Origin: a virus
Strand: one strand, 5' to 3'
Length of the DNA stretch: 64,000 bases
IMG/VR virus record: IMGVR_UViG_3300032323_003671
Location: 1 to 64,000 of that record
The first letter of the stretch is position 1. Each line of letters opens with the position of its first letter. Under the pieces are notes generated by a model. It made no database searches. It saw nothing but the letters and a program-made list of their open reading frames with translations, and was not told the DNA's origin. The translations under genes and the position numbers were made by a program. Positions 19,194-58,799 of the stretch are shown in pieces.

Positions 19194-22100
19194 TTGAAAA
19201 AGATAAAAAAAACTAGCGATGCCAAGGATGGAGGACTATTTGTTGGCAAATCACATGACGATGGTGGGATTCCTGCTATAGTTGTAGATACTGGACAACC
19301 TATTGAGGTTGAAGGTGGTGAAGCTATTATTAATAAAAAGGCCACAGCCAAACACTGGAAAGAATTATCAAAAATCAATCAAAGTACTGGTGGCGTTCCA
19401 ATTCCTCCTCCTGATCGAGCAGATGAACTTATGGACAAGTTTGAAAAGGGAGGAAAGTTAACTCAATTGGAGAAAAAAACTATTCACAACAAGTGGAAAA
19501 ACTTGGTGAATATGACATACACTGAATTGAGAAAGTATTATGATTCCAAAGATGGCAAAACTAGTGGCTTAACTCAAAAAGAAGCTGATGATTTAGGTAT
19601 TGATTCAGGTCGTGAAAGTGCTGTATGGATCATGAAAATGAAACGCACAAACTACAAGGATTGGACACCTGAAATGTGGCGTTGGGCTAAAAAACAAATA
19701 AGTTTTATATCTCGAATGAGAGGTAACCAAGGCGAGTTAATGGAAAATGGCAGAAGAACTCCAAAATTAAAATCATTATTGATTTGGGGTCATAATCCTT
19801 ACAAATATGCAGGAGGCGGAGACATTCCAGCTGAAGCAAAGTATCCAGTTGATGCAAATTCTCTTCAAGTAATGCTTAAATATGCATCAAAAGAAGATGC
19901 ACCTGCTATTCAGGAACAAATAGCCAAACTTAAACAAGAACATAAAGAAAAGTACCAAAAGAATCGGAAAAAATATAAAGGAGGTGGTAAACCATCGGAT
20001 ATTGCCTCTGCAATACTTGGATTGAAAGCACTTTTGAAATATCCAGAATTACTAGAAAAATTTGATAAGGAAAATATAGAATACACTATCAAAGGATTAG
20101 AAATTCTTGATAAAATGCATCCTTCTGAAATTGATCCTAACGATACAAGTAGTGGAGTGAAATTTATTCCATACAAGGATTACGAAATAATGTATGATCC
20201 ATATACTAAAAACTACTATGCTAACGATGCTGAATTTGATTCTTTAGAAGATGCAAAAGCATTTTTAGATTCAGGTAAAATTTCTGATTCAATTAGAGGT
20301 GCAATGCATTATGAAGTGTATGGATATTCAAAAGGTGGGTCAGTAAATAATCAAACACTTTTAGCACCAAATGGTAAACCAACTAAATTAACTCCAGAAC
20401 AATACAAATTAGTTCGTACACCAGAATTCAAAGCCTGGTTTGGAGATTGGGAAAATGATCCTGAAAGCGCAAGTAAGGTAGTTGATAGTAATGGTGAGCC
20501 TAAAATATATTATCAAGGCGTACCATATTATCTATATCCTAATGGAAAATTTATTTACGAAAAAGATAATAATGGAATATTTTTTACATCTGATAAAAGA
20601 ATCGCTTTAACATATGGGGTAGTAAAAGAAGTATTCATCAATTGCAGAAATCCAAAAGATATCAGAAATTATTTTGGATTCGATGGTAAAAAAATACCGA
20701 ATAGTGTCAGAAATGATAGAAACTATGATTTTAAATCGGAAGAAGAAATCCAATATGCCAATTCAGATAAAGAAGTCATTAAATTTTATAAGGAAGTTAT
20801 CAATAAGTATGGTAAACCCATTGAAATAACTGTTGATTCTACTGGTGAAAAATTCAAATTTAAGAGTGTAGAAGAAATAAAAAAATTCTTAATTCCAACT
20901 TCAGAAAAAGGATTTTCATTTTTGAATTTTACACGTAGAAGTCTTTTTTGGAATTGGATAGCAGAATATATTAAAAATTCTGAATACGATGGGATATTTG
21001 CAACTGATGAAGATCGTCTTTCTGAAGAAATATCAGATAGTGTAGTTGTTTATAATTCTAATCAAATAAAACTTGCAGATGGAACGAATACTACTTTTGA
21101 TTCTGAAAATCCTGATATTCGATTTGAAGATGGAGGATCAGTAAATAATCAACCACTTTTAGCACCAAATGGTAAACCAAGTAATCTATCGCCAGAACAA
21201 TACAAATTAGTTCGCACACTAGAATTCAAAGCATGGTTTGGCGATTGGGAAAAATTGATTCAAGTCAAAATGAATGATTCTGCTATAGATGAAATTTCTC
21301 TGAAAAAAATATCAGATACAGTAAGTAAGGTCGTGGATTCAAATGGCGAACCTATGGTGGTTTATCACACAACTGACAAAGAATTTTTTATTTTCGATAA
21401 AAAAAAATCAAAAGAAGGATTCTTTTTCTCACCTCAAAAAGAAAGACTTTCAGTATATAATAAATCAAAAATAGGTCAGTATTTTTTAAATGTAAAAAAT
21501 CCTTCTCACGAATTGTTTAAATCAGATGTGAATTATATTTTATCGAAAGGATACGATGGAATTATGGATTATGGCCATGCAAGAAAAATAAATGAATCCT
21601 TGTATGAAATAATTGTTTTCGAACCTAATCAAATAAAACTTGCAGATGGAACGAATACTACTTTTGATTCTGAAAATCCTGATATTCGATTTGAAGATGG
21701 TGGCAAGACTGATTTAACATACAAAGAAAAATACAACAAGAAATATGGGTATGATTTGGATAAGTCTCACAGTCTTGAAGAAATAGCATCAAAAACAGGT
21801 ATTTCACTTGAAGGGCTTCAAGAAATTTTCAATAAAGGTGTGGGTGCTTATAGAACAAATCCTGAAAGCGTTAGACCAAATGTAAAATCTCCAGAACAAT
21901 GGGGAATGGCTAGAGTTTATAGCGCAGTCATGGGCGGTAAAACAGCAAAGATAGATTCAAAAGAACTTAAAATGGAAGGCGGAGGCAAAACCGATTCAGA
22001 AATGAATATAGAAAGATACGTTGTCAAACCTAGAGTAAAATTTGGGATGGTATTTGGGTATGTTGTTTACGATAATTTAGAAAAAAAGAATTTGCCTTAT

Positions 22101-22607
22101 GATTATGATGAAGATGAACAATGGAAAGCTCAATCAAAAGCAGATTTACAAAACGAATTGGAGAAAAATCGTTTAAATAAAATGGAAGAAGGTGGCGTAA
22201 CAGATAAAAAAGATACAGTAACCTTAGATATTCCATTACTCATAAGATTATTAGAATTATCAAGAGAAGACATTCAATCAGATGCTGACTTACACAAGGT
22301 TGTAGAAAATATGCTCGATTTAAAAAATAAGGAGGTCTTAACAATGGAGGATTATGATAAAATTTCTCAAATCGCAAAAGAAAAATTAATTTCCCAAGCG
22401 CATTATAATTTGACAAGAAAACAAGGCCGACCTGAATACGCACCGAATTCACGTGAAATTGAAGCAGAGATTGAAAGAATGATAAATACAGAAAAATCAA
22501 AATTTGCCGATGGTGGAATACTAGAATCTGATACAATGGTAGTTCTACAATCACCAACTGAAATGTTGGATGAAATCAACTTTAATGCACAATTTAAACC
22601 AGAATAA
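19194..22607 (+). CDS. modular polyvalent protein (DUF3140-like, two ART-PolyVal-like, DUF5824-like modules)
   Basis: VNMT..EL...SLLIWGHNP; two copies of RT.EFKAWFGDWE...KVVDSNGEP...NQIK; TGISL...GVGAY...EQWGMARV; modules separated by [FYM]xxGG. Confidence 0.75.
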   Translation: MKKIKKTSDAKDGGLFVGKSHDDGGIPAIVVDTGQPIEVEGGEAIINKKATAKHWKELSKINQSTGGVPIPPPDRADELMDKFEKGGKLTQLEKKTIHNKWKNLVNMTYTELRKYYDSKDGKTSGLTQKEADDLGIDSGRESAVWIMKMKRTNYKDWTPEMWRWAKKQISFISRMRGNQGELMENGRRTPKLKSLLIWGHNPYKYAGGGDIPAEAKYPVDANSLQVMLKYASKEDAPAIQEQIAKLKQEHKEKYQKNRKKYKGGGKPSDIASAILGLKALLKYPELLEKFDKENIEYTIKGLEILDKMHPSEIDPNDTSSGVKFIPYKDYEIMYDPYTKNYYANDAEFDSLEDAKAFLDSGKISDSIRGAMHYEVYGYSKGGSVNNQTLLAPNGKPTKLTPEQYKLVRTPEFKAWFGDWENDPESASKVVDSNGEPKIYYQGVPYYLYPNGKFIYEKDNNGIFFTSDKRIALTYGVVKEVFINCRNPKDIRNYFGFDGKKIPNSVRNDRNYDFKSEEEIQYANSDKEVIKFYKEVINKYGKPIEITVDSTGEKFKFKSVEEIKKFLIPTSEKGFSFLNFTRRSLFWNWIAEYIKNSEYDGIFATDEDRLSEEISDSVVVYNSNQIKLADGTNTTFDSENPDIRFEDGGSVNNQPLLAPNGKPSNLSPEQYKLVRTLEFKAWFGDWEKLIQVKMNDSAIDEISLKKISDTVSKVVDSNGEPMVVYHTTDKEFFIFDKKKSKEGFFFSPQKERLSVYNKSKIGQYFLNVKNPSHELFKSDVNYILSKGYDGIMDYGHARKINESLYEIIVFEPNQIKLADGTNTTFDSENPDIRFEDGGKTDLTYKEKYNKKYGYDLDKSHSLEEIASKTGISLEGLQEIFNKGVGAYRTNPESVRPNVKSPEQWGMARVYSAVMGGKTAKIDSKELKMEGGGKTDSEMNIERYVVKPRVKFGMVFGYVVYDNLEKKNLPYDYDEDEQWKAQSKADLQNELEKNRLNKMEEGGVTDKKDTVTLDIPLLIRLLELSREDIQSDADLHKVVENMLDLKNKEVLTMEDYDKISQIAKEKLISQAHYNLTRKQGRPEYAPNSREIEAEIERMINTEKSKFADGGILESDTMVVLQSPTEMLDEINFNAQFKPE
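21058..21700 (+). repeat. 76-bp identical direct repeat (21058-21133 = 21625-21700) in the duplicated ART-like module
   Basis: CTAATCAAATAAAACTTGCAGATGG...GATTTGAAGATGG occurs twice; module 5' ends (~20340 and ~21138) are also near-identical. Confidence 0.9.
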
Positions 22608-22610
22608 TAA

Positions 22611-25600
22611 ATGGAAGCCCAAGATATTCAAAAACAGGTAGAAGAAAGATTAAAAGCTCAACAAGAAGGCAAGGAATTCAAAGACATTGGTAAGGTTGCA
22701 TATACTAAAAAAGAAATGGCAGCCTACAGATTAATATCATCAAAAATGCTTGTGGATTTAGAAGTAGATCCTACAATAGCATTTAACATGGTCAAAAAAG
22801 AAAATGTTTGGCCTGCATATAATGTTCAAGAATTAAAAGAAAAAGGTGTTTCTAGTGGTGCTGCATTTATGATGGTTAAATTAAGGACATCAGTTCCTAA
22901 TAAACCTGAAAACTCTCCAAATAAGAGATCAAGTTATGTTCATTTTTTAGAATTACTTCAATCAGATTTACAAAAGTGTATGACTTACTCTGATGTTTAC
23001 AATTTGGCTCAAGAGTATCAAAAAATGCCATTGGATAAATTGATTGAATACTTTATCGATCCATCTATTTTCCAGATGGATGAAGAAAATAGAATACTTG
23101 TTTTAGAAAAAGCCAAAAATAATCCTTCTATTCAGAAATTTACAAGTCGAGGATCTATATATAATTTATTTAAAGAAGTATTTGCAACAACATTTGCAAA
23201 TCTCATTTTTAACAAGACAGATGCAACTAATGCAGTATGGTATCAAGCTAGAGAATTTGCAGCACTTTCAGAAGAAGATTCTAAAACGCTTATTGACAAA
23301 CAAATTGAATCGACAAAAAAGCAAGTAGAAGAAAATAATGCTGAAATTGAAAAAATCAAATCTGCATCATTTTCAGAACTAAAAAAAATAGCTGAAAAAT
23401 ATTACAGATTAAGTTCAGCAGCTAAAAAAATATACTATAGTGATCAACCTAAGTTGATGGAATTTCTATTAGAAACCTTTCAAAGGAAAAATCAAAGGAG
23501 GGAGCTTGAACTTGCGGCATACAAACAAAAATATTCTCCAAGGTTAGAGGATTGGAGTTGGTTTGAAAAACCTAAAACTGAATCAGATACTCCAACAAAA
23601 AAGAGAGAGAAATCTATTAATACCAAAGAACCTTTATCTTATATAAAAAGAATAGGTGGATATAAAATAAACACTGTCAAGGCACAAGAAATTATTGATT
23701 TATTTGGTTTTTCAGCTGTCAATTATGGAAAATATGTTGATGATGCCTGGTCGAAGCAACACACTAAACATTTTTTAGGTGCAATTTCAGATTTAGGTGA
23801 TGTTTTAAACATTGATATTAAAAAAGTAAATGAGATAGGTGGATTGTCTATTGCTTTTGGTGCGAAAGGTATTGCTGGACACATGGCAACATATTTTTCT
23901 CAAAGTCATGATATAAATCTTACTAGAGGAAATGGAGATGGTTCAGTTGCTCATGAATGGGGACATTATTTTGATAACATACTTTGTGATTTATCTGAAA
24001 AGAAAGCAGAACCAAAATTTGCATCAGCATCAAAAGCTGATAACGCAAGTATATCTGATATAGTTTCAAAAATAATGAACTTTATTTATAAAGGAGATCC
24101 AGAATATACCCCTAGAATTCCAATGACTTTTTATGCCAAAAAGTCTAGTTCTGTACCTTCGTATTATAGTTATAAATATGGCAATCAGTCTATAAAAATT
24201 TTAGATACTATTGAAGAAACGTTAGATCAGTATTTAGATTTAGCAGAAGTAAATAGAGATAGATATAATACTCAGTTAAGAGTTTTTGGATATATCATCG
24301 ATGCCTTCGGTTTGGATAAATATTTGATTCCTATGAAATTGACTACAAGTTATCACTTTCATAAATCTGCTTATTTTTCTTTCGTTTATTCAGGCACAAA
24401 AGAAAATGGTCAGCCTGCAATAATTACTGGTACAAGATCAGCCTATTGGACAAAAAATGTTGAGTTGTTTGCAAGAGCTTGGGAAACAGTAATTCTTAAA
24501 AAATTACTAGACAAAAATAGAGTTAGCAACTATTTAGTTGCTGATATTAATATGCAAGATGTCATTGATGAAAATTGGTTTCAACCTTATCCACAAGGAA
24601 AAGAACTTGAATATCTTGAAACTTTAATTGATGAACTAATAGATGCATTCAAATTAGTTTATTCGGTGGGAGATTTCAATCCACCAAGTAGTATCAGAGA
24701 GGATGAATATTTAGATTTATCTCCGAATACAGATGAAGGTAAAACTGAATCAGGAATGGTAATTGATAAATCAACCGAAACAAAAACAACAACTTTTATT
24801 GAAAACGATAAGGTAGTTGAACAAATTAAAAAACCAAGAAAACCTAGAACAAAGAAAACCGAAGCTGTCTCTCCAGAACCAAGTGTGGCAGCAATTGAAG
24901 AAAATTCTCTAGAATTACAAGAAGATGAAGAACCAAAAGTAGAAGAAATGCAAGAACAAGTAAAAAATGAATCGATTGACGATTCTCAGATAAATGTTTC
25001 TCTTTATGCAAATAATTGGAATCAAGTTCCTATTCGATGGAAAAATGTCAAAGGTATTCGTCCAATAGTAGTCAGTTTAAATCCATTTGATAAAAACCTA
25101 TTAAGTCTTGCAAAAATTATTGTCAATACAAACATTAATTTCACCCCAAAACCAATTTTTAGTGCAATGTCTTTTGATAGCTCTGGAGTAACTTTTACAG
25201 ATGCAAAGAAATTAGTTCATATCGCAGGTGAAAACATAGATTACACAGGAAACTATCCTACTTCTGAAACATCAAAATTTTTTCCAGGTTCAATTGAAAA
25301 ACAAACCAAAGAATTGAATGCTATTCAATATCCGAATTGGAGATCGATAGTACCTAAAGAAAGCAAAGTAGAAAAAATAGAGATTGATAAACTTTATCAG
25401 TATGTTGTAGTTGCACTAAACTATGCAAACAAAATAAATCATACCATTGGATTTAAGTTTAGCAATTCAGATTTTATTGGATTTGATGGTGAGTTTCTAA
25501 AAGACATTTTAGAAGTACTTATGAAACTGCAACATACCAAAGATATCTATGTTCATTGGGCAAGTTCAAGTAGAGCTGTTTTATTTAGTTATGAAAAATC

Positions 25601-27032
25601 AATTGACATTGAAAAATCAACTTATGCGTTATTAATGCCGATGATGTTGCATGATGGTATTAATCAATTAGGTGCATCAGATATTGATTACAAAAAAGAT
25701 TTGAATTGTTATTTTGATTTTTCTGATAATCAAATTTATAATGCCGATGGATCAGTAGCAGACTACAAAGAAAACTATGGAGATGCACCAGGAATGTCTT
25801 TGAATTTAATTTCAATGTTCGCTTCTTTCTTAAAATCAAGTAAATCAAAAAAAGACGCATATTTTTATAGCTACATAAGAGTAGATAACGATAGTATATT
25901 GGTTTCTGATAAGAATACAAGACTTGAAATTCCAAATGATTATGATTTAATAACAGGTCTTTATACTATTGAGAACAATGTTTTAATTCGTGATATTTCT
26001 GCAGATATAGATAACTATTCACTCGAAAAGAGAATAGCTACAAAAGATCCGATATTTGTTGCTAACACAGAGCAATTGCTTTTTTATATGAACAAAATGT
26101 CAAATCACCTATCTGATGATGATGATTTCAGACCTAAATTATCTGGATATATTTTTGAGAAAAAAGATAATCAAGTAAATGCAGTATCTACAGATGCTCA
26201 TACTTTGATCAAACTTGATATCACAAATGCAATTGAATCTTCAATCGATGAATTCAATGTAATTCTTGGGAATGCCACAACATTAATGAATGTTTCAAAA
26301 TCTTGGGATTCAAAAAAAGTTGCGGTTTACATTGATAGTAAGGAAGAAAAATATCGTATCGTTTCAGATAGAATTCATTTTGAAGGTAAATTATATGACA
26401 AAGGCGTTACAAATTGGCGAGCAGTAACTCCAAACATTGTAAATAATCAATTGAAATTTAATGTTAAAGATTTATTCTCTTGTTTGACTAATCCCGAACT
26501 TAAAAAGTATGCCGATAAATTCGGATCAAAAGTAAAAGACCTAGCTTTGTATAACAACTTTAATGAAGTTTATGCGATTTATGATGCAAAAAACAATAAT
26601 GAAAGTATCAAAGTTTGTGATTTAAAATTAAATCATACTGAAATAAACGAGTTGTTTAATATCAATGAATCTTATGTTTTAATAATGCCTGTTGTATTTA
26701 CGAATGGAAATTATTTCAATTTAGGAATAGGCAAACTTGAAGATGTAATGAATTCTATTGGTAAAGAAGAATGTACAGTAGTATATAAGGAATTAAATAG
26801 TGGCTATGTCTTCACTTCTGAAAATCTTTATTACAAAAACTCGGATGTTTACAAACCTGAGAAACCTAAAAAAGTTCAAAAACCAGTTGTCAAACCATCT
26901 GAACCTACTAATCAAAAGCAAGAAATATTAGATGCTTTAACTGGTGCGAAAACACTACTAAAATACGTATCAGGAGAGGATAAATCAAATCTTTCGGCTT
27001 ATATTAGAGGACTTGAAATCCTAATGAAATAA
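22611..27032 (+). CDS. large polyvalent protein: zincin/LPD1-like region plus beta-clamp-like repeats
   Basis: AHEWGHYFD and ELFARAWE; C-half YPNWRSIVP, IGFDGEFLKDIL, LLMPM, DDFRPKLSG...VSTDAHTL. Confidence 0.7.
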   Translation: MEAQDIQKQVEERLKAQQEGKEFKDIGKVAYTKKEMAAYRLISSKMLVDLEVDPTIAFNMVKKENVWPAYNVQELKEKGVSSGAAFMMVKLRTSVPNKPENSPNKRSSYVHFLELLQSDLQKCMTYSDVYNLAQEYQKMPLDKLIEYFIDPSIFQMDEENRILVLEKAKNNPSIQKFTSRGSIYNLFKEVFATTFANLIFNKTDATNAVWYQAREFAALSEEDSKTLIDKQIESTKKQVEENNAEIEKIKSASFSELKKIAEKYYRLSSAAKKIYYSDQPKLMEFLLETFQRKNQRRELELAAYKQKYSPRLEDWSWFEKPKTESDTPTKKREKSINTKEPLSYIKRIGGYKINTVKAQEIIDLFGFSAVNYGKYVDDAWSKQHTKHFLGAISDLGDVLNIDIKKVNEIGGLSIAFGAKGIAGHMATYFSQSHDINLTRGNGDGSVAHEWGHYFDNILCDLSEKKAEPKFASASKADNASISDIVSKIMNFIYKGDPEYTPRIPMTFYAKKSSSVPSYYSYKYGNQSIKILDTIEETLDQYLDLAEVNRDRYNTQLRVFGYIIDAFGLDKYLIPMKLTTSYHFHKSAYFSFVYSGTKENGQPAIITGTRSAYWTKNVELFARAWETVILKKLLDKNRVSNYLVADINMQDVIDENWFQPYPQGKELEYLETLIDELIDAFKLVYSVGDFNPPSSIREDEYLDLSPNTDEGKTESGMVIDKSTETKTTTFIENDKVVEQIKKPRKPRTKKTEAVSPEPSVAAIEENSLELQEDEEPKVEEMQEQVKNESIDDSQINVSLYANNWNQVPIRWKNVKGIRPIVVSLNPFDKNLLSLAKIIVNTNINFTPKPIFSAMSFDSSGVTFTDAKKLVHIAGENIDYTGNYPTSETSKFFPGSIEKQTKELNAIQYPNWRSIVPKESKVEKIEIDKLYQYVVVALNYANKINHTIGFKFSNSDFIGFDGEFLKDILEVLMKLQHTKDIYVHWASSSRAVLFSYEKSIDIEKSTYALLMPMMLHDGINQLGASDIDYKKDLNCYFDFSDNQIYNADGSVADYKENYGDAPGMSLNLISMFASFLKSSKSKKDAYFYSYIRVDNDSILVSDKNTRLEIPNDYDLITGLYTIENNVLIRDISADIDNYSLEKRIATKDPIFVANTEQLLFYMNKMSNHLSDDDDFRPKLSGYIFEKKDNQVNAVSTDAHTLIKLDITNAIESSIDEFNVILGNATTLMNVSKSWDSKKVAVYIDSKEEKYRIVSDRIHFEGKLYDKGVTNWRAVTPNIVNNQLKFNVKDLFSCLTNPELKKYADKFGSKVKDLALYNNFNEVYAIYDAKNNNESIKVCDLKLNHTEINELFNINESYVLIMPVVFTNGNYFNLGIGKLEDVMNSIGKEECTVVYKELNSGYVFTSENLYYKNSDVYKPEKPKKVQKPVVKPSEPTNQKQEILDALTGAKTLLKYVSGEDKSNLSAYIRGLEILMK

Positions 27033-30082: not shown

Positions 30083-30847
30083 ATGAAAAAAGAAACTATT
30101 GTAAGAAACACAATGCGTGAATTCAAGGAAGGGAAATTGCGTTCATCAAGTGGAGAAAAAGTTACTAGTCGCAAACAGGCGATTGCTATTGCTTTAAGTA
30201 AATCAGGTCAGTCCAAATTTGCTGCAGGTGGTATGGTAGGTCAAAACTTAGTTTTTGATCGTTGGGATGAAAAGTTAGAAGGCCGAATTATTGAAATAAC
30301 TGATTCAGGTGATTATATCGTTTCTTCTGGATCGAGAACTATTCTTGTTAGTCCTGATGATATCATTTCTTATGGAGACATGAAGCCTAAAAAAAGATTT
30401 TCTTTTTTCAAGGATGGTGGCACTACAAGTTCAGAGACGATTCTTTGGGCGGTAAAAGTAGGAGAACCTGATTGGAAAGAAGTTCTGATTACAAATAATC
30501 CAGATAAAATTGATGAAGCTCGAAAATGGGCTTCAGAAAATGGATTTGATAGATTTAGAGTTGCTTCTGTGGATATGTCAAGTCGTCCAGACTTTACCAA
30601 AACTTTTAAAGATGGAGGTGATGTAATGAAATACGATTGGGCTTCAATGTGGAAAAAACCATCTAAGTCTAGTAGAGTTATGATTGGTGATGTTGTTTTT
30701 CAAAAACATTCAGACCAACCTTACAAAATCATTGAATTACTTGATGATCAATACACAGTTGCGAAAATCGTTAATAATGAAGAAACCGAATGGAAAACCT
30801 TCAATAAGGATTTTTATGAGCATCGTATGTTTGAAAAACGTAATTAA
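30083..30847 (+). CDS. modular protein with N-terminal DUF6496-like domain
   Basis: MREFKEGKLRSSSGEKVTSRKQAIAIALS; FAAGG/FKDGG/FKDGG spacers; one module shared with 27542. Confidence 0.75.
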   Translation: MKKETIVRNTMREFKEGKLRSSSGEKVTSRKQAIAIALSKSGQSKFAAGGMVGQNLVFDRWDEKLEGRIIEITDSGDYIVSSGSRTILVSPDDIISYGDMKPKKRFSFFKDGGTTSSETILWAVKVGEPDWKEVLITNNPDKIDEARKWASENGFDRFRVASVDMSSRPDFTKTFKDGGDVMKYDWASMWKKPSKSSRVMIGDVVFQKHSDQPYKIIELLDDQYTVAKIVNNEETEWKTFNKDFYEHRMFEKRN

Positions 30848-30857: not shown

Positions 30858-31565
30858 ATGCTATTTTCAAGAAGCAATTTAAAAACTTTCTTTGATTCGG
30901 TATTAACTGGTGAAAGCAAGACTTATGATGATCACAATTGGTACACTTCTTCAGGATTAAGATCATATATTAGAGGAGTCAATCAGAATCGCAACTCTGC
31001 ATTAAGTAAGGATTTATCTGATACCACTATTGCCGATGTCATGAAATTCCAAAAGAACCAACGTTCTAGCACTTCTGGCCAACTTTGGGCTACTGGAAGG
31101 TATCAGATTATTCCGACAACCTTAAAAGGCCTTGTGGATAACTATAAAATAAATCCAAATCAAAAGTATAGTGAAGCGGTTCAGGATGAACTTGGCGAAA
31201 AACTTTTACTTGGCAGAAGTAATCTTAGGAAGTACTTAAAGAAAGAAGTTCCTGATACCAAAGAAAATCGTGAGAAAGCAGCATTGGATATGGCAAAAAT
31301 ATGGAGTTCTATCGGAGTTCCATACGATATGCAAGGTTCAAGAAAAGCTATTAAGAAAAACCAAAGTTATTATTCTGGAGGTGGTGATACTGCATCTGTA
31401 AAAACCGAAACAGTTCAAGCAGCATTGCAAAAATTACGAAACTCAGATAATACAACACAAGAAAGTCCAAAACCAAATAATAATGGTAAAATTTTGGATA
31501 GTGTTTTCATTGCATTGTTTGTCATTGGATCTTACATTTTCTACAAAAAAATGACATCTATTTAA
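30858..31565 (+). CDS. lysozyme-like muramidase with C-terminal TM
   Basis: GES...ATGRYQIIPTTL...QD...WSS, lambda/GH104-like pattern. Confidence 0.75.
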   Translation: MLFSRSNLKTFFDSVLTGESKTYDDHNWYTSSGLRSYIRGVNQNRNSALSKDLSDTTIADVMKFQKNQRSSTSGQLWATGRYQIIPTTLKGLVDNYKINPNQKYSEAVQDELGEKLLLGRSNLRKYLKKEVPDTKENREKAALDMAKIWSSIGVPYDMQGSRKAIKKNQSYYSGGGDTASVKTETVQAALQKLRNSDNTTQESPKPNNNGKILDSVFIALFVIGSYIFYKKMTSI

Positions 31566-39208: not shown

Positions 39209-39210
39209 TC

Positions 39211-50124: not shown

Positions 50125-50135
50125 AACATTGTATA

Positions 50136-50600
50136 ATGAAACTAAGTAATAATTTTTGGTTAATTGAATTCACTAGAAGTGATTTAGCTAAACGCCTTGG
50201 CATTAGTAATCAACCTACCAAAGCGCATTTAGAAAATATCAAATTACTTTGTGAAAAGGTTTTAGAACCGATTCGAGAACACTTTGATACTCCTATTTAT
50301 ATTAGTTCGGGATATAGATCGATAGAACTAAATAAGAAAACTCCTGGTGCATCTACTACTTCTCAACATTCAAGTGGAGAGGCAGCAGATATCGATATGG
50401 ATGGTAGCATCATTTCAAATGCGGATGTCTTTAATTACATAAAAGAAAATCTAGAGTTTGATCAACTTATCTGGGAATTTGGTACAGATACAAATCCTGA
50501 TTGGGTTCATGTATCCTTTGAATCCTCAGGTAAACAACGTAAACAAATTCTTAAAGCGGTTAAATCAGGCGGAAAGAAATTTTATAGAAAGTTTAAATAA
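50136..50600 (+). CDS. M15A peptidase (endolysin)
   Basis: SSGYRS..LN...SQHSSGEAADI...DQLIWE...WVHVS; likely start ATG 50136. Confidence 0.9.
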   Translation: MKLSNNFWLIEFTRSDLAKRLGISNQPTKAHLENIKLLCEKVLEPIREHFDTPIYISSGYRSIELNKKTPGASTTSQHSSGEAADIDMDGSIISNADVFNYIKENLEFDQLIWEFGTDTNPDWVHVSFESSGKQRKQILKAVKSGGKKFYRKFK

Positions 50601-51939: not shown

Positions 51940-52764
51940 ATGCCGAAAAAGATTTTTTTTCAGTCTAGCATGCCTAGATCGGGTTCTACTATTTTACAAA
52001 ATATCGTAGGTCAAAATCCTAACTTTTATGTTACGCCAACATCAGGTGTTTTGGAATTAGTTTTTGGTGCTAGAGCCAACTATACAACTTCTCCAGAATT
52101 CAAAGCGCAAGATTCTGAATTGATGGCCAAAGCATTTAAGAATTTTTGTGTTCAAGGAATAAATGGTTTTTACGATGGTATTACTGACAAACCTTATGTT
52201 TTAGACAAAAGCAGAGGTTGGGGAGTTTATCGACCTTTTTTAGATGAATTCTATCCTGATCCTAAAATCATTTGCATGGTTAGGGATTTAAGAAGTGTTT
52301 TGGCTTCTTATGAAAAAATATATCGAAAGTCTCAACTGAAACATGATCCTATTCGTGATGATGCCTCAGCTAGGGGTACTACAGTACACAAACGTATTGA
52401 TGAATGGGTAAATCCTCAGAATACGATTGGTCGTGCAGTAGAGCGTATTTTTGAAATGATTCGACTTGGATATGATGATAAGATTCTATTTGTAAAATTT
52501 GAGGATCTAGCACTTTATCCAGACTTGGAGATGAAACGTATCTATAACTACTTAGGTTTAGATTATTTCGAACATGATTTTGATAATATTCAACAAATTA
52601 CCAAAGAAGACGATGCAGTTTACGGACTGACATCCGATTTACATACAATTAAGCCAAGATTAGAACCTTTGAAAAAGGATTTCAAAGAAATTCTTGGTAA
52701 AGATATTTGTGATTGGATTCAAAATAATTATTCCTGGTATCAAGAAAAATTCAATTATAGATAA
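51940..52764 (+). CDS. sulfotransferase
   Basis: PAPS-binding MPRSGST, DKSR.W, KIICMVRD...LAS, FEDL..P. Confidence 0.9.
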   Translation: MPKKIFFQSSMPRSGSTILQNIVGQNPNFYVTPTSGVLELVFGARANYTTSPEFKAQDSELMAKAFKNFCVQGINGFYDGITDKPYVLDKSRGWGVYRPFLDEFYPDPKIICMVRDLRSVLASYEKIYRKSQLKHDPIRDDASARGTTVHKRIDEWVNPQNTIGRAVERIFEMIRLGYDDKILFVKFEDLALYPDLEMKRIYNYLGLDYFEHDFDNIQQITKEDDAVYGLTSDLHTIKPRLEPLKKDFKEILGKDICDWIQNNYSWYQEKFNYR

Positions 52765-53622: not shown

Positions 53623-54432
53623 ATGAAGAACAAGAACATTCTTACTATTGCAGGTATTTTGATTGCTGGTTCGGCAATTTATTTTGGTATTAAATGGTAT
53701 CAAAAAAATCAAGAAGAAAAAAATCAATTACCTAAGCCAGATCCAGTTGTTACTCCTTCTGGTAATGGTACGGATTTAGCTCCGAGCGATGTGGAAAATC
53801 CATTCTTAAATATTGACGAAGTAAAAGCGTTTCAAGATTGGATGGATGCAAAGCACCCTAATTGGGTAAATGGTAAGAATTTAAATAAAGGTGCAGGATA
53901 TGGTAATTTTGGCCCAGCTACAAAGGCAGCCTTTACTACTTATGGTGCTGAATACCTTAAATCATTACAACCAGCACCTGCTCAATTGTCTGAGAATCAG
54001 AAAAAAGATATTCAGACTATCATGGCTCATGGAACTGGAGATAAATCAAAAGAATCATATTTAAAAGCAACAATTGCAAAGTATCCTAACTACACTGCTA
54101 ATTGGGCTAATTCAATTCGTAGAAGAATAGAAACTAATGGCCAACAAGGAACAACTTTCCTTTTTGCTAATCAGATTTATGAATCTTTTTCTGGAAACAG
54201 AATCTATCGTGGCACTTTGCTAGGTAAAAAGCCAGAAGTAAAGGCTAACGCTAAATTGCGTAGAGAATCTAAATGGAATACAAGCACTCAACCTGTAGGT
54301 GTAGGTGCAGACTTAGGTAAAGTCAAAGGTTATTTTTACAATAAAAATGACAAGGCTTTATTTGTCTATGTTCCAGACCAAAATAAATCCCTAACAAATA
54401 AATGGATTTGGGTAGGATCAATAAAATTTTAA
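53623..54432 (+). CDS. membrane-anchored protein with peptidoglycan-binding-like domain
   Basis: N-terminal TM; VKAFQDWM...GNFGPATKAA. Confidence 0.6.
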   Translation: MKNKNILTIAGILIAGSAIYFGIKWYQKNQEEKNQLPKPDPVVTPSGNGTDLAPSDVENPFLNIDEVKAFQDWMDAKHPNWVNGKNLNKGAGYGNFGPATKAAFTTYGAEYLKSLQPAPAQLSENQKKDIQTIMAHGTGDKSKESYLKATIAKYPNYTANWANSIRRRIETNGQQGTTFLFANQIYESFSGNRIYRGTLLGKKPEVKANAKLRRESKWNTSTQPVGVGADLGKVKGYFYNKNDKALFVYVPDQNKSLTNKWIWVGSIKF

Positions 54433-54433
54433 T

Positions 54434-54985
54434 ATGAGAGAGCAAGAAATTAGACCAGTTCGTTTTATGGTGGCCAATGGATTTTCTGAGTTACGTCCGC
54501 CAACAATTTATGGTGATGTATCTCCGATGTCCGCATTTGATGGAGAACCTATCAATGATACAGAATTCCCATTCACTGAGGAAATTATGCTTGAATTTTC
54601 AAATGCCGATGGTAAAGCTAGACGTGCTAAAAGACGTTCTGCTCGATCAGATAAAAAGCAAGGTAAGGCTAGTGCCAAAAAAGACCGCCAATCAGATAGA
54701 TCAGCTGCTAGAAAACAGCGTGCTGATATTCGTGAAAGAAGAATGTCTTTGAAAGAAAAAGAACAAGCAACACAAGCGGAAGTTGCTAAGAAAATCGGTG
54801 AACAATCTCCTGAAGAAATTGCTTTGATGAATCAAATTGCTAGTCAAGGTACTACCAAAAGTGAAACCGCACCAAAAGTAGGCATGAGTAAAGGTCTTAA
54901 AATTGGCCTTATTGCTGGATCCGTTGCTGTTTTGACAATTGTAGTCATTGCCATTGTTAAATCCCGTAAAAAATCTAAAAAATGA
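54434..54985 (+). CDS. basic putative virion membrane protein, related to 39211
   Basis: FSNADG plus R/K tract; C-terminal TM. Confidence 0.75.
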   Translation: MREQEIRPVRFMVANGFSELRPPTIYGDVSPMSAFDGEPINDTEFPFTEEIMLEFSNADGKARRAKRRSARSDKKQGKASAKKDRQSDRSAARKQRADIRERRMSLKEKEQATQAEVAKKIGEQSPEEIALMNQIASQGTTKSETAPKVGMSKGLKIGLIAGSVAVLTIVVIAIVKSRKKSKK

Positions 54986-55665
54986 TTGAAGTAAACACAG
55001 CTCGTCCAGTATATTCTAATGCTATAGGTGATAAATTAAAAAGATCACCAGAAAAAAAAGCCAAAACTCAGGAGAATAGAGCCGAACGTGCGGAAAAAAG
55101 AAGTGGTCGTAAGGCAAAAAGAAATGCCAAGAAACTTATCCGCATGGAAAATAAAGGCAAAAAGAAGTTTTTCTATCCTTTAACAAAGATTTTTGGCAAA
55201 AAGAAAAAGTACAAAGATGGATCAACAATTGAAGTTCCTGCCGAAAATACAGTTGTAGTTTCAACCAAAGATGGTAAAACAGCATCTTTGGATAAAACAG
55301 AGATTGCAAAAGCACTCAATATTCCTGAAAGCCAGGTTACGCCAGCAAAAGTTCAAGAAGTTGTTGTGAATGTACCACAAGCAAGTGCAGGCCCAGCAGC
55401 AAACGAAACAGGAACTCCAGTAGGTGAGCCAGTTCTTGCAATTCCAATAAAAGATGAAGATGTAATCATTACAGACGATGGTTCAGCGTATTTATCTGAT
55501 GATACTCAATCTCAGGATGAAAAATTGAAAAATGTTGCCGATGATGATAAAGAAGCACAGAAAAAAATTAAAATCGGAAAAATTTTATTGATTTCTGGTG
55601 TTGTAATCGTTGTTTTAGGTGCAGTCGTTTACTTTATGAATAAAGATTCAAAAGCTGAAAAATAA
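54982..55665 (+). CDS. basic putative virion membrane protein, paralog of 42222
   Basis: RPVYSNAIG plus basic tract; C-terminal TM. Confidence 0.75.
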   Translation: MIEVNTARPVYSNAIGDKLKRSPEKKAKTQENRAERAEKRSGRKAKRNAKKLIRMENKGKKKFFYPLTKIFGKKKKYKDGSTIEVPAENTVVVSTKDGKTASLDKTEIAKALNIPESQVTPAKVQEVVVNVPQASAGPAANETGTPVGEPVLAIPIKDEDVIITDDGSAYLSDDTQSQDEKLKNVADDDKEAQKKIKIGKILLISGVVIVVLGAVVYFMNKDSKAEK

Positions 55666-55668
55666 ATC

Positions 55669-56031
55669 ATGGGAAAAGAAAAAGATTTGTTGGGTAATCC
55701 ATATAAGCAGTCTAATCCTACATTAAGTTTAGGATCAACATTAAGCATCAATACCCCTGCTCCAATCATCGGAACAAATGGTATTTCATACAAACCAGGT
55801 AAGTACACTACTCTTACAAATCCAGATTTAGGCAATCCTTTTAGAAAGAATCCATCAGGAAAAACAGATATGAGTTTAAAGAAACCTTCTGAAATGAAAA
55901 TGGATCGCAAAAAATCTGAAACCACTGATCAAACTCAGTCAAATACAATGGGTAAAACTACTACTTATGTAATCGTAGGGATACTTGCTGTAGTTGGAAT
56001 TAGTTTATTATTAAGAACAAATAATGAATAA
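55669..56031 (+). CDS. membrane protein (C-terminal TM)
   Basis: LGNP repeat; hydrophobic tail. Confidence 0.7.
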   Translation: MGKEKDLLGNPYKQSNPTLSLGSTLSINTPAPIIGTNGISYKPGKYTTLTNPDLGNPFRKNPSGKTDMSLKKPSEMKMDRKKSETTDQTQSNTMGKTTTYVIVGILAVVGISLLLRTNNE

Positions 56032-56043: not shown

Positions 56044-56490
56044 ATGGAAACTATGTTTTATTTTAGAATTCAAAGTCGTATGAAAATGACCATTTTTTTA
56101 ACCATTATGTTCCCTCTAGTATCCATGTCATTTATTGCATCATATTGTTATGAAGCAACTTTACTTTATTGGCAAGAATACTTTGCCCTATCGATGGCTA
56201 TTGGTCTTGATGGATTTTTTGGGATGATTAATGGTATTAAGAAAGAAGGATTTAAATCTTTCAAGGCACTCAGAATCGGTAAATCATTCTTTTCTTGGAA
56301 TCTTATTCTAACTTCAATACTCATTACACAAAAAGCGTTTCCAGCAGCGTCTTGGCTTGATGAGACTTTTATTATTCCAGTAATCAGCTTCTTACTTATT
56401 TCCACTATTAAAAATGCAAGTCAGGCAGGTTTTATTAAGGCCGAACTTGTAAACGTAATCATGGAAAAAATTGACCAACATAAAAATTAA
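56044..56490 (+). CDS. putative holin
   Basis: Multiple TMs; LDGFFG...K.EGF.S...IS..KNA...G pattern of holin-4-like proteins. Confidence 0.65.
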   Translation: METMFYFRIQSRMKMTIFLTIMFPLVSMSFIASYCYEATLLYWQEYFALSMAIGLDGFFGMINGIKKEGFKSFKALRIGKSFFSWNLILTSILITQKAFPAASWLDETFIIPVISFLLISTIKNASQAGFIKAELVNVIMEKIDQHKN

Positions 56491-56493
56491 GCC

Positions 56494-57275: not shown

Positions 57276-57277
57276 AT

Positions 57278-57860: not shown

Positions 57861-58100
57861 ATGAGCTTAACTGGAATGCTTGGCGGATTAATTGACAGTG
57901 AAGGAATAGTAACTGAGAAAATCCAAACAACTCTTGATGATTTATCAGAGGAACTAAAAGAACCTAACTTTCGTAATTTCTTTATTACGATTATCCCAAT
58001 CAATGAAGAATTTGATTTTCAATGCGTTGTTTATCATAGAACACCAGAAGGAATAAAAATGGTTAGAGAAATCACTATCAAAGAAATCGTTGAAAAATAA
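57861..58100 (+). CDS. hypothetical protein
   Basis: 79 aa; TATATTTG promoter at 57832-57839. Confidence 0.7.
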   Translation: MSLTGMLGGLIDSEGIVTEKIQTTLDDLSEELKEPNFRNFFITIIPINEEFDFQCVVYHRTPEGIKMVREITIKEIVEK

Positions 58101-58459
58101 TGAAAATCGATAGAATATATATCAGTCTATCGTTATCGCTATTTTGCTTAATATTTAGTATCTGGAGTTATTTCAATTCGAATAAAAAGGATTCAATTAA
58201 CTCCAATGATACTATTGAAAATTATTTTCTCGATCAAAGAAAATCGATTGAGAAACAAAATCAATTGCTCATTCACAAACTGGATAGTTTAGAAAAAAAG
58301 ATTGACAAGAATCAAATTAAACTTGTCCAAATCCAAAACCAGAAAAAAGAAATCGAGTATGTCTACCAAAATAAAATTAATCAGATTGATGCTTACTATA
58401 CTAATGGTATCGTCAATGAATTCAATTTGCTTTTCTCAAAAGGTAATTTCCGAAAATAA
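58100..58459 (+). CDS. N-terminal TM coiled-coil protein (spanin-like)
   Basis: TM plus coiled coil; overlaps the next gene. Confidence 0.5.
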   Translation: MKIDRIYISLSLSLFCLIFSIWSYFNSNKKDSINSNDTIENYFLDQRKSIEKQNQLLIHKLDSLEKKIDKNQIKLVQIQNQKKEIEYVYQNKINQIDAYYTNGIVNEFNLLFSKGNFRK

Positions 58460-58799
58460 TGACACTTTGATATGTTTTGATTTAGAACAATCAAAATACA
58501 TTCTTAAAGAAATGAATCATGCTATCTTTTTAGATAGCATTAATCGCCTCTCGCAATCCGAAATAAGATTATTGAACACTACTATCAAAGATTTACAGAT
58601 AATCGTTGAGAGCCAAAAAGAACAGATAATTTTAAGAGATGTCGATTACAAGATATCCAAGACCGAAACAAAATTGCTAAAAGAAAAAAACGAATCCCTT
58701 AAAAAAGAGATCCGTTTACAAAAGTTTTACAAATGGCTGTCAATTGGCGTAGGTACAATAACTACTTCATTTATGACTTATTTGTATCTGACAAAATAG
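58359..58799 (+). CDS. signal-peptide coiled-coil protein with C-terminal TM (spanin-like partner)
   Basis: Starts inside the previous gene in another frame. Confidence 0.5.
   Translation: MSTKIKLIRLMLTILMVSSMNSICFSQKVISENNDTLICFDLEQSKYILKEMNHAIFLDSINRLSQSEIRLLNTTIKDLQIIVESQKEQIILRDVDYKISKTETKLLKEKNESLKKEIRLQKFYKWLSIGVGTITTSFMTYLYLTK

Follow-up and report, generated by a model that had tools for sequence, protein, structure and literature searches.

The window analysed here is a 64-kb stretch of a 73,262-bp IMG/VR virus record and contains an unbroken block of plus-strand ORFs at positions 19194-58799. To the left of this late block lies a plus-strand arm (1-16.9 kb) encoding DnaB, a DnaA-C HTH protein, N6/N4 and C5 methylases and RusA, followed by a minus-strand VanY/OmpA/SLT cassette that spans 16.9-18.9 kb together with a permuted tmRNA. 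To the right, a minus-strand arm of small ORFs occupies 59-73 kb, and only small minus-strand ORFs lie beyond the window (64-73 kb). An Acb2/Tad1-like sponge is also among the gene products of the record. The ORF layout agrees with the initial annotation, which had placed early arms on both sides of a 40-kb late region, and the DnaB, methylases and tmRNA that it had listed are all present. Proteins are named below by the start of their genes; the first features are:

10765..11370, plus strand: early-arm protein paralogous to the 37422 jelly roll but lacking its acidic leader (BLASTP 4e-10; hhalign 96%, E 3e-9)
16958..17168, minus strand: permuted tmRNA (Rfam RF04321, 61 bits, gathering score 47; ARAGORN 16867-17210)
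17208..18924, minus strand: cassette of VanY peptidase, OmpA-like protein and SLT transglycosylase
19194..22607, plus strand: polyvalent protein 1, 1137 aa, with ART-PolyVal, DUF5824 and DUF3140 (Pfam, above cut-offs)
22611..27032, plus strand: polyvalent protein 2, 1473 aa, with LPD1 (Pfam 2.3e-12), a clamp-like stretch at 1166-1294, and matches to phrog_947 (1.3e-12) and large unknown PHROGs
27542..30073, plus strand: polyvalent protein 3, 843 aa, with LPD11 (Pfam 1.5e-30)
30083..30847, plus strand: DUF6496 protein, 254 aa

Four related records of 58-84 kb were available for comparison. All five records are classed as linear and lack end repeats, with CheckV completeness of 37-61% (48% for the present one), and arm lengths vary among the relatives, one early arm reaching 42 kb. 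Because the record has no terminal repeats, a completeness of 48% and a relative with so long an arm, further genes could lie off the contig. The left end of the record nevertheless looks like a true genome end: the relative G004 begins at the homologous gene, and contigs from three runs in two studies end at window positions 1, 20 and 35. Bacteroidota names were borne by 4 of 7 MAG matches, and a tblastn search of 50,697 phage records with three late proteins turned up none that was related.

The initial annotation had recognised no terminase, portal, HK97 capsid, tape measure, sheath or baseplate gene in the late region. None of these families was among the Pfam matches listed for 10+10+10+85 ORFs of the 73-kb record, among the PHROG matches listed for 10+10+85 ORFs (for the 85, all proteins of at most 250 aa, the best 25 of 66 matched families) or among the NCBIfam matches listed for 10 ORFs. 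In a six-frame Pfam search, Terminase_6N, TerL_ATPase, Phage_portal and Phage_capsid each matched 0 of 5 records, and the best 25 of 33 families matched by 129 ORFs of the relatives' arms included no terminase, portal or HK97 capsid. Three PHROG matches carry tail labels. The sole "tape measure" match, phrog_16823, coincides with the VanY peptidase domain of 17208-17771 (minus strand); phrog_2013 matches in or beside the SLT domain, and phrog_10030 (E 8.9e-4) lies on 46554, where it matches no known domain.

These labels, the incomplete linear records and the variable arms would suit a very divergent tailed phage (Caudoviricetes) whose head and tail genes lie off the contig or have diverged beyond the reach of HMMs; other roles would then fall to the ATPase and jelly rolls described below. 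Polyvalent and fibre-like proteins are usual in tailed phages. Set against this are the six-frame result, the absence of head-tail families among the matches listed for about 115 ORFs of the record and 129 of the relatives' arms, the lack of an unassigned ORF with the size and character of a portal, and the apparently true left end. The case for a genome without head-tail genes is strong but not final, since the record may be incomplete.

Within the late block lie the genes of a putative packaging ATPase and its neighbours:

33348..34514, plus strand: conserved 388-aa protein, half low-complexity, directly upstream of the ATPase
34517..35356, plus strand: genome-packaging ATPase, 279 aa, FtsK/HerA superfamily, P23-77/PM2/STIV B204 type
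35337..35567, plus strand: 76-aa two-TM protein, directly after the ATPase

The 34517 translation contains the motifs ascribed to it from the start, namely Walker A (GIQGVGKT) and Walker B (LVLED) followed by LRH and YQ. Its family comprises 397 clusters at 50% identity; a 62-member alignment shows no variation at G21, K22, D51 and D123, and conservation of 90% or more at E122, R145, H146 and Q156. The family profile matched P23-77 ORF13, annotated in its record as "putative genome packaging ATPase" (hhalign 92.3%, E 5.7e-7, 168 columns), PM2 P9 (84.5%, E 7e-6, 140 columns) and STIV B204 (E 4.4e-4), the last over profile positions 8-179, the whole domain, with Walker A, Walker B and an NRHxG...Q motif in common. 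A corresponding profile of the small-provirus ATPases described below gave stronger matches still (P23-77: 98.4%, E 8.5e-15; PM2: 94.6%, E 6.8e-8; B204: E 1.1e-6). Of the neighbouring genes, 33348 has homologues in all four relatives (34-49% identity) and no family in Pfam, PHROGs or NCBIfam, and 35337 occupies the position of the small post-ATPase ORFs in PRD1, PM2 and P23-77.

A non-viral mobile element, conjugative or plasmid-like, with an FtsK/HerA-type ATPase driving DNA across a membrane channel and polyvalent proteins transferred alongside, would account for the weak Pfam matches of the ATPase family to HerA (DUF87), TrwB and Zot and for the many membrane proteins, and polyvalent proteins do occur on conjugative elements. 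However, the HerA and TrwB matches span the Walker A stretch only, whereas the virus packaging ATPases match over the whole domain. The Pfam matches listed include no relaxase, VirB4 or coupling-protein family, while a lytic phage is indicated by the holin, three peptidoglycan hydrolases, RusA and the Acb2/Tad1-like sponge; the capsid-like fold matches of the jelly-roll proteins also speak against a mobile element. We regard a mobile element as very improbable. The predicted 34517 protein groups with the packaging ATPases of tailless membrane phages and not with VirB4/HerA.

Two late proteins are candidates for the shell:

37422..38174, plus strand: major capsid protein candidate 1, 250 aa (AF2, VIA, homologue beside the ATPase in small proviruses)
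43365..44309, plus strand: capsid protein candidate 2, 314 aa (AF2, VIA, hhalign to the 37422 family)

The beta-rich 37422 protein, singled out early as a capsid candidate, comprises an acidic leader of ~55 aa, a single jelly roll (61-210) and a conserved C-terminal tail; 43365 has a disordered basic/acidic N-terminal half and a jelly roll at 133-306. AF2 models of both are beta sandwiches of moderate confidence (pLDDT 68.8 and 61.3). In the VIA fold search, virion proteins filled the first four rows for 37422 and the first 13 for 43365, among them the capsid proteins of FLiP, PRD1, STIV and faustovirus. The best matches reached Z 6.3 (rmsd 6.6, 100 residues aligned) and Z 5.8, respectively, values in a range (Z <8) that the tool describes as common for unrelated models, and tail-fibre, cement-protein and CBM jelly-roll chains also appear in both lists. 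The two families matched each other at 71% hhalign probability (E 3.7e-5, 70 columns), and we take 37422 and the C-terminal half of 43365 to be distantly paralogous single jelly rolls. Against P23-77 VP16/VP17, PRD1 P3/P31, PM2 P2 and the SSIP-1 structural proteins, all hhalign probabilities were below 3%; against PDB sequences, the 37422 profile had no match and the 43365 profile chance-level matches only (E at least 0.36).

Both proteins might instead be minor components (penton base, spike foot or cement) of a tailless membrane virus whose real shell is an unrecognised double jelly roll or other fold among the unassigned late proteins. The top VIA row of 37422 is a 124-residue PR772 chain, by its length presumably the penton protein P31, and Z values fail to separate capsid from penton or fibre jelly rolls. 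Structure prediction covered two late proteins, 37422 and 43365, and no double jelly roll was found. Yet among the late proteins only the ATPase surpasses 37422 in conservation; 37422 keeps 53-75% identity in the four relatives and has 625 homologues, at least 59% identical among the 120 listed, and many metagenome copies (43365 has 425 homologues). No second late ORF in a suitable size range combines a beta-rich composition with conservation. We consider a minor role unlikely. Candidate membrane, spike and lysis proteins, among others, are encoded in the remainder of the late block:

30858..31565, plus strand: lysozyme-like protein with a C-terminal membrane anchor, TM 210-228 (PHROG endolysin families, 3.8e-16)
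38250..42587, plus strand: eight proteins (166, 152, 415, 90, 203, 104, 165 and 121 aa), most TM-anchored
42587..43363, plus strand: 258-aa protein with a C-terminal HExxH (zincin-like) domain
44306..46543, plus strand: beta-rich spike candidate, 745 aa (composition; 422-790 aa in relatives)
47596..50124, plus strand: Gly-rich repeat fibre candidate, 842 aa, beta-rich
50088..50600, plus strand: Peptidase_M15_3 endolysin (Pfam 2.3e-17)
51940..52764, plus strand: sulfotransferase (Pfam 7.3e-19)
53623..56031, plus strand: four further TM-anchored proteins (269, 183, 227 and 120 aa), two with Arg/Lys-rich segments
56044..56490, plus strand: holin (Pfam Phage_holin_4_1, 22.3 bits, cut-off 22.2)

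In a Kyte-Doolittle scan, 21 of 47 late ORFs contained one or more hydrophobic 19-mers, which in two cases are probably beta strands, so the earlier count of about 20 small TM proteins holds. Several members of the 38250..42587 run have very basic or acidic N-terminal parts, and the run, conserved in relatives, is a candidate set of inner-membrane proteins; 30858 is a candidate virion-associated wall-degrading enzyme. Of the several spikes originally proposed, 44306 and 47596 stand as candidates by composition and length variation among relatives, with no family match in Pfam, PHROGs or NCBIfam.

Of 401 genomes from a single Bacteroidota order, 13 contained matches to the ATPase profile. The ORF directly after the ATPase matched the 37422 profile in 7 of 15 short loci, and small-provirus post-ATPase ORFs matched the 37422 family in profile-profile comparison (96.9%, E 1.3e-10, 166 columns). 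These small elements, integrated in Bacteroidota chromosomes and in one case ~16 kb long, carry the ATPase, a small ORF and the 37422 homologue in that order, plus a homologue of 42587 with HExxH and TM (hhalign 82%, E 1e-5; phmmer 1.9e-4); a 4.4-Mb chromosome holds such an element adjoining an integrase and a tRNA-Arg. An unbiased phmmer comparison of 122 × 245 proteins ranked the ATPase, jelly roll and HExxH protein strongest (E 9.6e-8 to 1.9e-4), five other pairs reaching only E 2.6e-4 to 7.6e-3. The large lineage shares an ATPase/jelly-roll/HExxH core with small Bacteroidota proviruses and looks like a genome-expanded branch of their stock. The provirus order is that of ATPase, small ORF and capsid gene in P23-77, PRD1 and PM2; the slot of the 37422 homologue is their major capsid gene site, which argues further against a minor role for 37422. 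That the ATPase/jelly-roll pair recurs in a small integrase-bearing element with no terminase, portal or tail family among 10 ORFs likewise counts against a divergent tailed phage, a reading we hold to be quite unlikely.

ATPase matches, paralogous single jelly rolls and provirus gene order place the predicted virus closest to the group with two single-jelly-roll capsid proteins (Helvetiavirae, P23-77 type), not the double-jelly-roll group. The initial proposal of a Varidnaviria member or sister lineage had named PRD1, PM2, SH1 and P23-77 side by side; the nearest analogue is the P23-77 type rather than PRD1 or PM2. P23-77 (Matshushitaviridae, Halopanivirales) has the closest packaging ATPase of those compared and, by its record annotation, two single-jelly-roll capsid proteins beside the ATPase and small ORF, as well as a virion lysozyme and a transglycosylase. 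Passages of PMC6356626 and PMC8812541 describe it as tailless with an inner membrane. Unlike the circular 17-kb P23-77 genome, the genomes here span 58 to more than 84 kb, with a 5-kb distance between the two jelly-roll genes and 2 kb between these and the ATPase; they also encode polyvalent proteins, tmRNA, DnaB and methylases, which the P23-77 annotation lacks. The P23-77 capsid proteins have no detectable sequence similarity to the candidates here.

PRD1 (Tectiviridae), PM2 (Corticoviridae) and STIV (Turriviridae) likewise have homologous packaging ATPases. They also possess numerous small membrane proteins, spikes at the vertices and a transglycosylase associated with the membrane (PRD1 P7), but their shell protein is one double jelly roll. 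Prokaryotic double-jelly-roll viruses are given as 7-18 kb (PMC5894146) or <20 kb (PMC8812541) in the passages concerned. SSIP-1, a tailless membrane phage of a halophilic bacterium, has the largest genome among the tailless membrane phages compared (43.8 kb) and one giant structural protein (gp43, 2319 aa), and is said in part of PMC6356626 to encode two capsid protein types. Its gp40 matches the ATPase here in the Walker A region only, and no structural protein matches.

We consider it likely that 19194-58799 holds the particle-building and lysis genes of an uncultured Bacteroidota dsDNA phage with a large genome (58 to more than 84 kb), its virion most probably tailless and icosahedral with a vertical single-jelly-roll shell and an inner lipid membrane; both the membrane and the taillessness are inferred from gene content. 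The initial reading of a large, tailless, membrane-containing Bacteroidota virus is thereby largely supported. Of the two findings named in advance as counting against it, neither appeared: the 73-kb record and its four relatives (58-84 kb) yielded no terminase, portal or HK97 capsid among the matches listed, the ATPase matched P23-77 ORF13, PM2 P9 and STIV B204 over the whole domain, and the predicted fold of 37422 is a jelly roll. Such a genome would be several times larger than those of known bacterial viruses of the same tailless-membrane kind. In the proposed particle, 37422, probably with its paralogue 43365, would build the shell, and the membrane would house some 20 small tail-anchored proteins, several of them with basic segments that resemble DNA-binding ones. 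Through one vertex of the preformed particle the 279-aa ATPase would pump in the genome. The vertex spikes would be 44306 and 47596, the polyvalent proteins may travel inside together with the membrane-anchored lysozyme 30858, and the holin and M15 peptidase would free the progeny.

The polyvalent proteins give no argument for taillessness, since tailed phages and conjugative elements have proteins of this class too, as reportedly set out by Iyer et al. in 2017. They resemble known examples in carrying ART-PolyVal, LPD1 and LPD11 in proteins of 843-1473 aa, and differ in a recurrent [FYM]xxGG motif between the domains, with 21 copies (nine in 19194, nine in 27542 and three in 30083). Adenovirus and ASFV process proteins at GG sites with a virion protease; the motif, also present in the 37422 leader, suggests similar processing here.

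A re-check of the sequence recovered every element listed in the initial annotation. The IMG/VR record (73,262 bp, its first 64,000 bases being the window; GC content 29-37% in the window) is organised in three gene blocks, comprising a forward arm at 1-16.9 kb, a forward late block at 19194-58799 and a reverse arm at 59-73 kb. ORFs are named here by their start position in the window.

Principal features of the record
1-16.9 kb, + strand: early arm, with DnaB, a DnaA-C-type HTH protein, N6/N4 and C5 DNA methylases, RusA and an Acb2/Tad1-like protein
16958-17168, - strand: permuted tmRNA (Rfam RF04321, 61 bits against a gathering score of 47)
Between early arm and late block, - strand: VanY/OmpA/SLT cassette
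30858, + strand: membrane-anchored lysozyme, a lysis gene
50088, + strand: M15 peptidase, a lysis gene
56044, + strand: holin, a lysis gene
59-73 kb, - strand: right arm of small ORFs, including an APS kinase and an RNA polymerase alpha-CTD-like protein

The tmRNA is phage-borne, and ARAGORN reads its tag peptide as GNVIEMFPKLRAVA.

The proposed lack of head-tail genes held for the whole record: among the matches listed, no terminase, portal, HK97 capsid, tape measure, sheath or baseplate family appeared. Pfam searches of ~115 ORFs and NCBIfam searches of 10 ORFs listed no head-tail family, and PHROG searches of 105 ORFs listed no genuine one; the PHROG run on 85 of these, all encoding proteins of at most 250 aa, listed 25 of 66 matched families. 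The lone 'tape measure' PHROG match, to a 187-aa protein, coincided with the VanY peptidase domain. A terminase or portal elsewhere on the contig would have pointed to a tailed phage, and in these searches neither was found there or in four related records. In six frames, Terminase_6N, TerL_ATPase, Phage_portal and Phage_capsid (PF03237, PF03354, PF04860, PF05065) each matched 0/5 records, while these searches gave matches in 3 to 8 of 14 known genomes serving as positive controls. The Caudoviricetes combination of terminase large subunit, portal and HK97-fold capsid was not found in the five records, a result to be read with the possible incompleteness of the records and the capacity of HMMs to miss extreme divergence. 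When compared with 50,697 phage records by tblastn and megablast, the late DNA, the ATPase and 42587 (a 258-aa protein with a C-terminal HExxH motif) were unmatched, and 37422 (a 250-aa capsid candidate) gave a chance-level match only (E 0.3). For ten key late proteins, PHROGs, Pfam and NCBIfam returned only weak P-loop matches and one unnamed PHROG.

The 279-aa ATPase (34517-35356, + strand) carries the motifs first reported for it, GIQGVGKT (Walker A) and LVLED (Walker B), which are conserved over 62 family members, with G21, K22 and D123 invariant in the 62-sequence alignment. It is a single-domain P-loop ATPase within the ~200-300 aa range, has both Walker motifs and no nuclease domain, and belongs to a family of 397 clusters at 50% identity, nearly all of 260-300 aa, in a full-library search. 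Kinship with HerA or TrwB was suggested only around one motif: Pfam matches to HerA/DUF87, STAND and TrwB were all sub-threshold and confined to the Walker A stretch, and the 62-sequence profile aligned with HerA in the PDB over ~50-70 residues around Walker A only. By contrast, whole-domain profile similarity linked the protein to known packaging ATPases, namely the STIV genome-packaging NTPase B204 (E 4.4e-4, profile positions 8-179; Walker A, Walker B and an NRHxG...Q motif in common), P23-77 ORF13, a 'putative genome packaging ATPase' (92.3%, E 5.7e-7, 168 columns), and PM2 P9 (84.5%, E 7e-6, 140 columns), the phage ATPases compared being translations from annotated phage records. PRD1 P9 reached 24% only. 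SSIP-1, a tailless membrane phage, was dismissed as a close relative because its gp40 matches in the Walker A region alone. Since the matches to P23-77, PM2 and B204 span the domain, the profile of the 279-aa protein places it in the family of packaging ATPases used by tailless membrane viruses, with P23-77 as its nearest counterpart in the set compared, in agreement with the viral packaging type initially proposed. Its predicted role is ATP-driven DNA packaging at a unique vertex. Four distant relatives of the ATPase (P0143, P0212, P0129 and P0134) could not be located in IMG/VR.

Two late proteins are candidates for the shell. The first, 37422, is the best-conserved late protein after the ATPase in the four related records; its homologues form 625 protein clusters, with identities of 59-97% among 120 matches listed. 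Its AlphaFold2 model (53 sequences, mean pLDDT 68.8) starts with a helix (3-18) and an acidic stretch without order (19-58), followed by a beta sandwich (61-210) that is well modelled. The top VIA-align match was a 124-residue PR772 chain (Z 6.3), and the matches included the Grapevine fanleaf virus capsid (Z 6.1), the FLiP capsid protein (Z 6.1, rmsd 3.5, 100 residues) and the STIV turret protein (Z 6.0); lower rows mixed capsid proteins of PBCV-1, phiCjT23, faustovirus and PRD1 with CBMs, TNF/C1q-like domains and Ena pili. In the model of the second candidate, 43365 (314 aa, 425 homologue clusters; mean pLDDT 61.3), the N-terminal half is disordered and residues 133-306 form a jelly roll. 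Its first 13 VIA-align rows were virion proteins throughout (Z 5.8-5.2), from gemini-, nano-, cucumo-, como- and nepoviruses, faustovirus, PR772, PRD1 and STIV. These Z values, up to 6.3 for 37422 and 5.8 for 43365, lie within the range that the tool reports for unrelated models; as properties of the models, they show a fold with a capsid-like flavour, not homology.

The families of 37422 and 43365 matched each other in an hhalign profile-to-profile comparison (71%, E 3.7e-5, 70 columns), and we hold with moderate, not strong, confidence that the modelled pair represents two paralogous single-jelly-roll structural proteins. Sequence likeness to solved or reference capsid proteins was found for neither: the 37422 profile had no match among PDB sequences, the 43365 profile had chance-level matches only (E at least 0.36), and VP16/VP17-type proteins scored an hhalign probability of at most 0.6% against the candidates. 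In the structural comparison, P23-77 chains were absent from the 50 VIA-align rows listed for either model, and may rank lower. Foldseek matches in PDB and BFVD to picorna-like capsids and collagen-like fibres (TM at most 0.31) were taken as jelly-roll fold only. The protein atlas offered no usable match for 37422, and the feature neighbours of 43365 there were Cressdnaviricota capsid clusters, which at 0.87 fall under the 0.9 line and are a lead only. Complex prediction for the two jelly-roll domains scored 0.00, which speaks neither for nor against binding. Of the Varidnaviria-like reading first offered, the tailless-membrane-type ATPase stands; the two late proteins that were folded are both single barrels, neither being a double jelly roll.

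In the early arm, the ORF at 10765-11370 is clearly paralogous to 37422 (96%, E 3e-9). It has no leader and lies directly ahead of an Acb2/Tad1-like gene (anti-CBASS/Thoeris sponge; 11360-11638), and may be a decoy against capsid-sensing defence.

To the large record can be added small proviruses, a link that is new in this analysis. The ATPase profile was searched against genomes sampled from the phylum, and from the order, to which a Saprospira MAG carrying a large relative belongs. Short ATPases (~180-230 aa) occurred in 1 further genome out of 401 in the phylum sample and in 12 further genomes out of 401 in the order sample, the latter together with one large-type copy; five other phylum-sample matches were discarded as 595-779-aa frames matching at Walker A only. 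The profile of the small-provirus ATPases matched P23-77 (98.4%, E 8.5e-15), PM2 (94.6%), PRD1 (55.9%) and, at full length, STIV B204 (E 1.1e-6). At 7 of 15 short loci the ORF just 3' of the ATPase matches the 37422 profile, and four such ORFs, when aligned, matched the 37422 family over 166 columns (96.9%, E 1.3e-10) that cover its acidic leader and C-terminal tail. Also encoded by the small elements is a C-terminally anchored HExxH protein; the C-terminal domain of 42587 is its homologue (82%, E 1e-5). In an all-against-all phmmer comparison of 122 element proteins with 245 ORFs of this record, the strongest matches (E 9.6e-8 to 1.9e-4) were the ATPase, jelly-roll (including the early-arm paralogue) and HExxH families, and five more pairs reached only E 2.6e-4 to 7.6e-3. 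No second jelly-roll gene emerged when 11 provirus proteins were compared with three profiles by hhalign; a 323-aa protein with a weak match to the 43365 profile is no jelly roll but the HExxH+TM protein itself.

Small integrase-bearing elements in Bacteroidota chromosomes
L126:16800-L127:12431 (chromosome G048, ~16 kb), L143, L147, L149

The content of these elements includes a P23-77-like ATPase, a jelly-roll protein, an HExxH+TM protein, a lysozyme and a beta-helix spike. The G048 element, at 2.77 Mb on a 4.4-Mb chromosome, has a one-strand gene run of ~14 kb terminating at a tyrosine integrase beside a tRNA-Arg, and carries a GH108 lysozyme and a beta-helix protein. No attachment-site repeats were found beyond a 12-nt chance match, so its left border is approximate. 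None of the 10 ORFs scanned in it matched a tailed-phage family, and we argue that, in an element so small and without a recognisable head-tail gene, the ATPase and jelly-roll pair would itself be the packaging and shell machinery. Their gene order, with the ATPase first, a small ORF next and the jelly-roll gene third, recurs in the annotated records of P23-77 (ATPase, ORF14, VP15, VP16, VP17), PRD1 (P9, gpi, P20, P3) and PM2 (P9, P7, P2). The small elements look like an undescribed group of tailless temperate phages and, being in sequenced bacterial chromosomes, offer a tractable route to culture. The 4.6-kb elements of 10.1101/2025.08.03.668216 are unrelated.

Small relatives are thus integrated in Bacteroidota chromosomes. 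The capsid gene was also found on seven MAG contigs: four bear Bacteroidota labels (Bacteroidetes bacterium, Saprospira, Saprospiraceae and Flavobacteriaceae), one comes from a Clostridiaceae bin and two come from archaeal bins. Together, the labels and the small relatives in the same phylum make a Bacteroidota host likely, if not proven, for this record.

The roughly 20 small transmembrane proteins described initially were recovered in a hydropathy scan, with TM-like segments in 21 of 47 late ORFs, most of them single C-terminal anchors after highly charged stretches. These segments are indirect evidence for a lipid membrane, which would lie beneath the shell; the shell itself would be built of pseudo-hexameric capsomers with vertical barrels. 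The first three large late proteins are multi-domain polyvalent proteins, a group on which Iyer et al. reportedly worked in 2017, with Pfam matches to ART-PolyVal (86 bits, cut-off 31.2), LPD1 (47.2, cut-off 27) and LPD11 (105.5, cut-off 27). Residues 1166-1294 of the second (22611-27032) form a sliding-clamp-like stretch that matches phrog_947 'processivity factor' (1.3e-12) and, below cut-off, Pfam DNA_pol3_beta_2. No DNA polymerase family was among the matches listed for the record or the relatives' arms.

A short motif, [FYM]xxGG, has 30 copies in the late proteins, where shuffles give 7.8 +/- 2.7 (maximum 19), and two copies in the 5,722 aa of early proteins. Of the late copies, nine lie in each of the polyvalent proteins 19194 and 27542, where they are spaced 60-190 aa apart, three in 30083 and two in the leader of 37422 (37422-37590). 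They probably constitute a set of protease sites, for which the HExxH protein 42587 is one candidate protease. Adenovirus and ASFV cleave at GG sites.

Among relatives of the record, 11 IMG/VR contigs (19-84 kb) carry ATPases 68-84% identical, and the capsid candidate is encoded on 192 confirmed metagenome stretches, with contigs of up to 60 kb in that collection. A core (~31.6-47.5 kb) is common to all four fully read relatives in identical order. The 84-kb relative has a single-strand early arm of 42 kb, and another has a - strand arm of 18.5 kb. CheckV completeness was 37-61% across the five records, estimates that imply very different full sizes and are therefore given little weight. Direct or inverted terminal repeats were found in none of the five. 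The first genes of this record and the 57.8-kb relative are homologous, both records starting ~300 nt ahead of them, and a C-rich terminal motif is common to both (window 1-300; L029:1-310). The contigs of 3 runs, drawn from 2 studies, break off at positions 1, 20 and 35 of the window, and none of the loose ends listed lies there, evidence that rests on the pieces and loose ends listed for Logan contigs, which break often. Taken together, the shared start, the motif and the contig stops indicate that the left end is probably real, and is probably the physical terminus of the genome, lacking any long terminal repeat. The right ends of two relatives are homologous and this record extends 11 kb beyond them; the five records did not close into a genome circle.

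Three paralogous small ORFs spread over both arms (window 5388-5804, +; L015:1690-2079, -; L015:5076-5504, -) all match one and the same ORF of the 84-kb relative, and phrog_10066 is matched by 4 of 85 ORFs scanned. These small two-arm paralogues are terminal multigene families. The early arm of the 84-kb relative holds five tandem N6/N4 DNA methylase paralogues at 74.6-83.5 kb (L019-L020).

The suggestion of a larger member or sister lineage agrees with the sizes observed, 57.8-84.3 kb in the five records against 17 kb for P23-77 and 44 kb for SSIP-1 in their annotated records. Helvetiavirae-type genomes (~16-31 kb) have an upper bound of 31 kb, below all five. Simuloviridae genomes are 16-19 kb, and those of prokaryotic double-jelly-roll viruses 7-18 kb (PMC5894146) or <20 kb (PMC8812541). 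The virus is a member of no described family, since genome size and the lack of capsid-protein similarity set it outside each at family level; by mechanism, it belongs with membrane-containing viruses that package via an A32-type ATPase. We consider it probable that the record represents a tailless, inner-membrane, jelly-roll-capsid phage of Bacteroidota, with a P23-77/PM2/STIV-type ATPase and a genome 3-5 times that of P23-77. The main points at stake are 37422 and 43365, candidates from modelling, as the shell itself, and genome completeness.

More tentatively, we put forward a joint reading that we find plausible, if somewhat short of probable: a new high-rank lineage of single-jelly-roll membrane phages of Bacteroidota, widespread in lakes and seas, that would have expanded from small integrating proviruses (one of ~16 kb) into lytic viruses of 58-100 kb, equipped with a DnaB, methylases and a tmRNA of their own as well as with anti-defence genes and terminal gene families, and in which the capsid protein and packaged polyproteins would be matured at [FYM]xxGG, as in adenovirus and ASFV at GG sites. 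Such a lineage would be a bacterial parallel to giant viruses arising from small jelly-roll ancestors and would mean that jelly-roll-capsid viruses have expanded their genomes outside eukaryotic hosts too. A clade of 58 to >84 kb would break the size ceiling of tailless membrane bacteriophages, known only as small. Counted in the hundreds in metagenomes (the capsid candidates fall into 625 and 425 clusters, respectively; 192 stretches), it would bring into the ecology of freshwater and marine Bacteroidota an abundant kind of virus that has so far gone unclassified. No published description of such a clade was found in the literature searched, and the supplementary contig lists of PMC5894146 may hold the small elements.

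The record additionally encodes a sulfotransferase (51940-52764, +) and an APS kinase (60098-60565, -), and 2 of 129 ORFs in relatives (L018-L028) encode PAPS-reductase-domain proteins, which hints at virus-directed sulfation or at sulfur-based DNA or glycan modification. A 167-aa protein (62551-63054, -) with an RNA polymerase alpha C-terminal domain (1.5e-16) may serve takeover of host transcription. One related IMG/VR contig (L006) bears a 'GVMAG' (giant-virus bin) name, from which we conclude that the clade was probably binned earlier with eukaryotic giant viruses.
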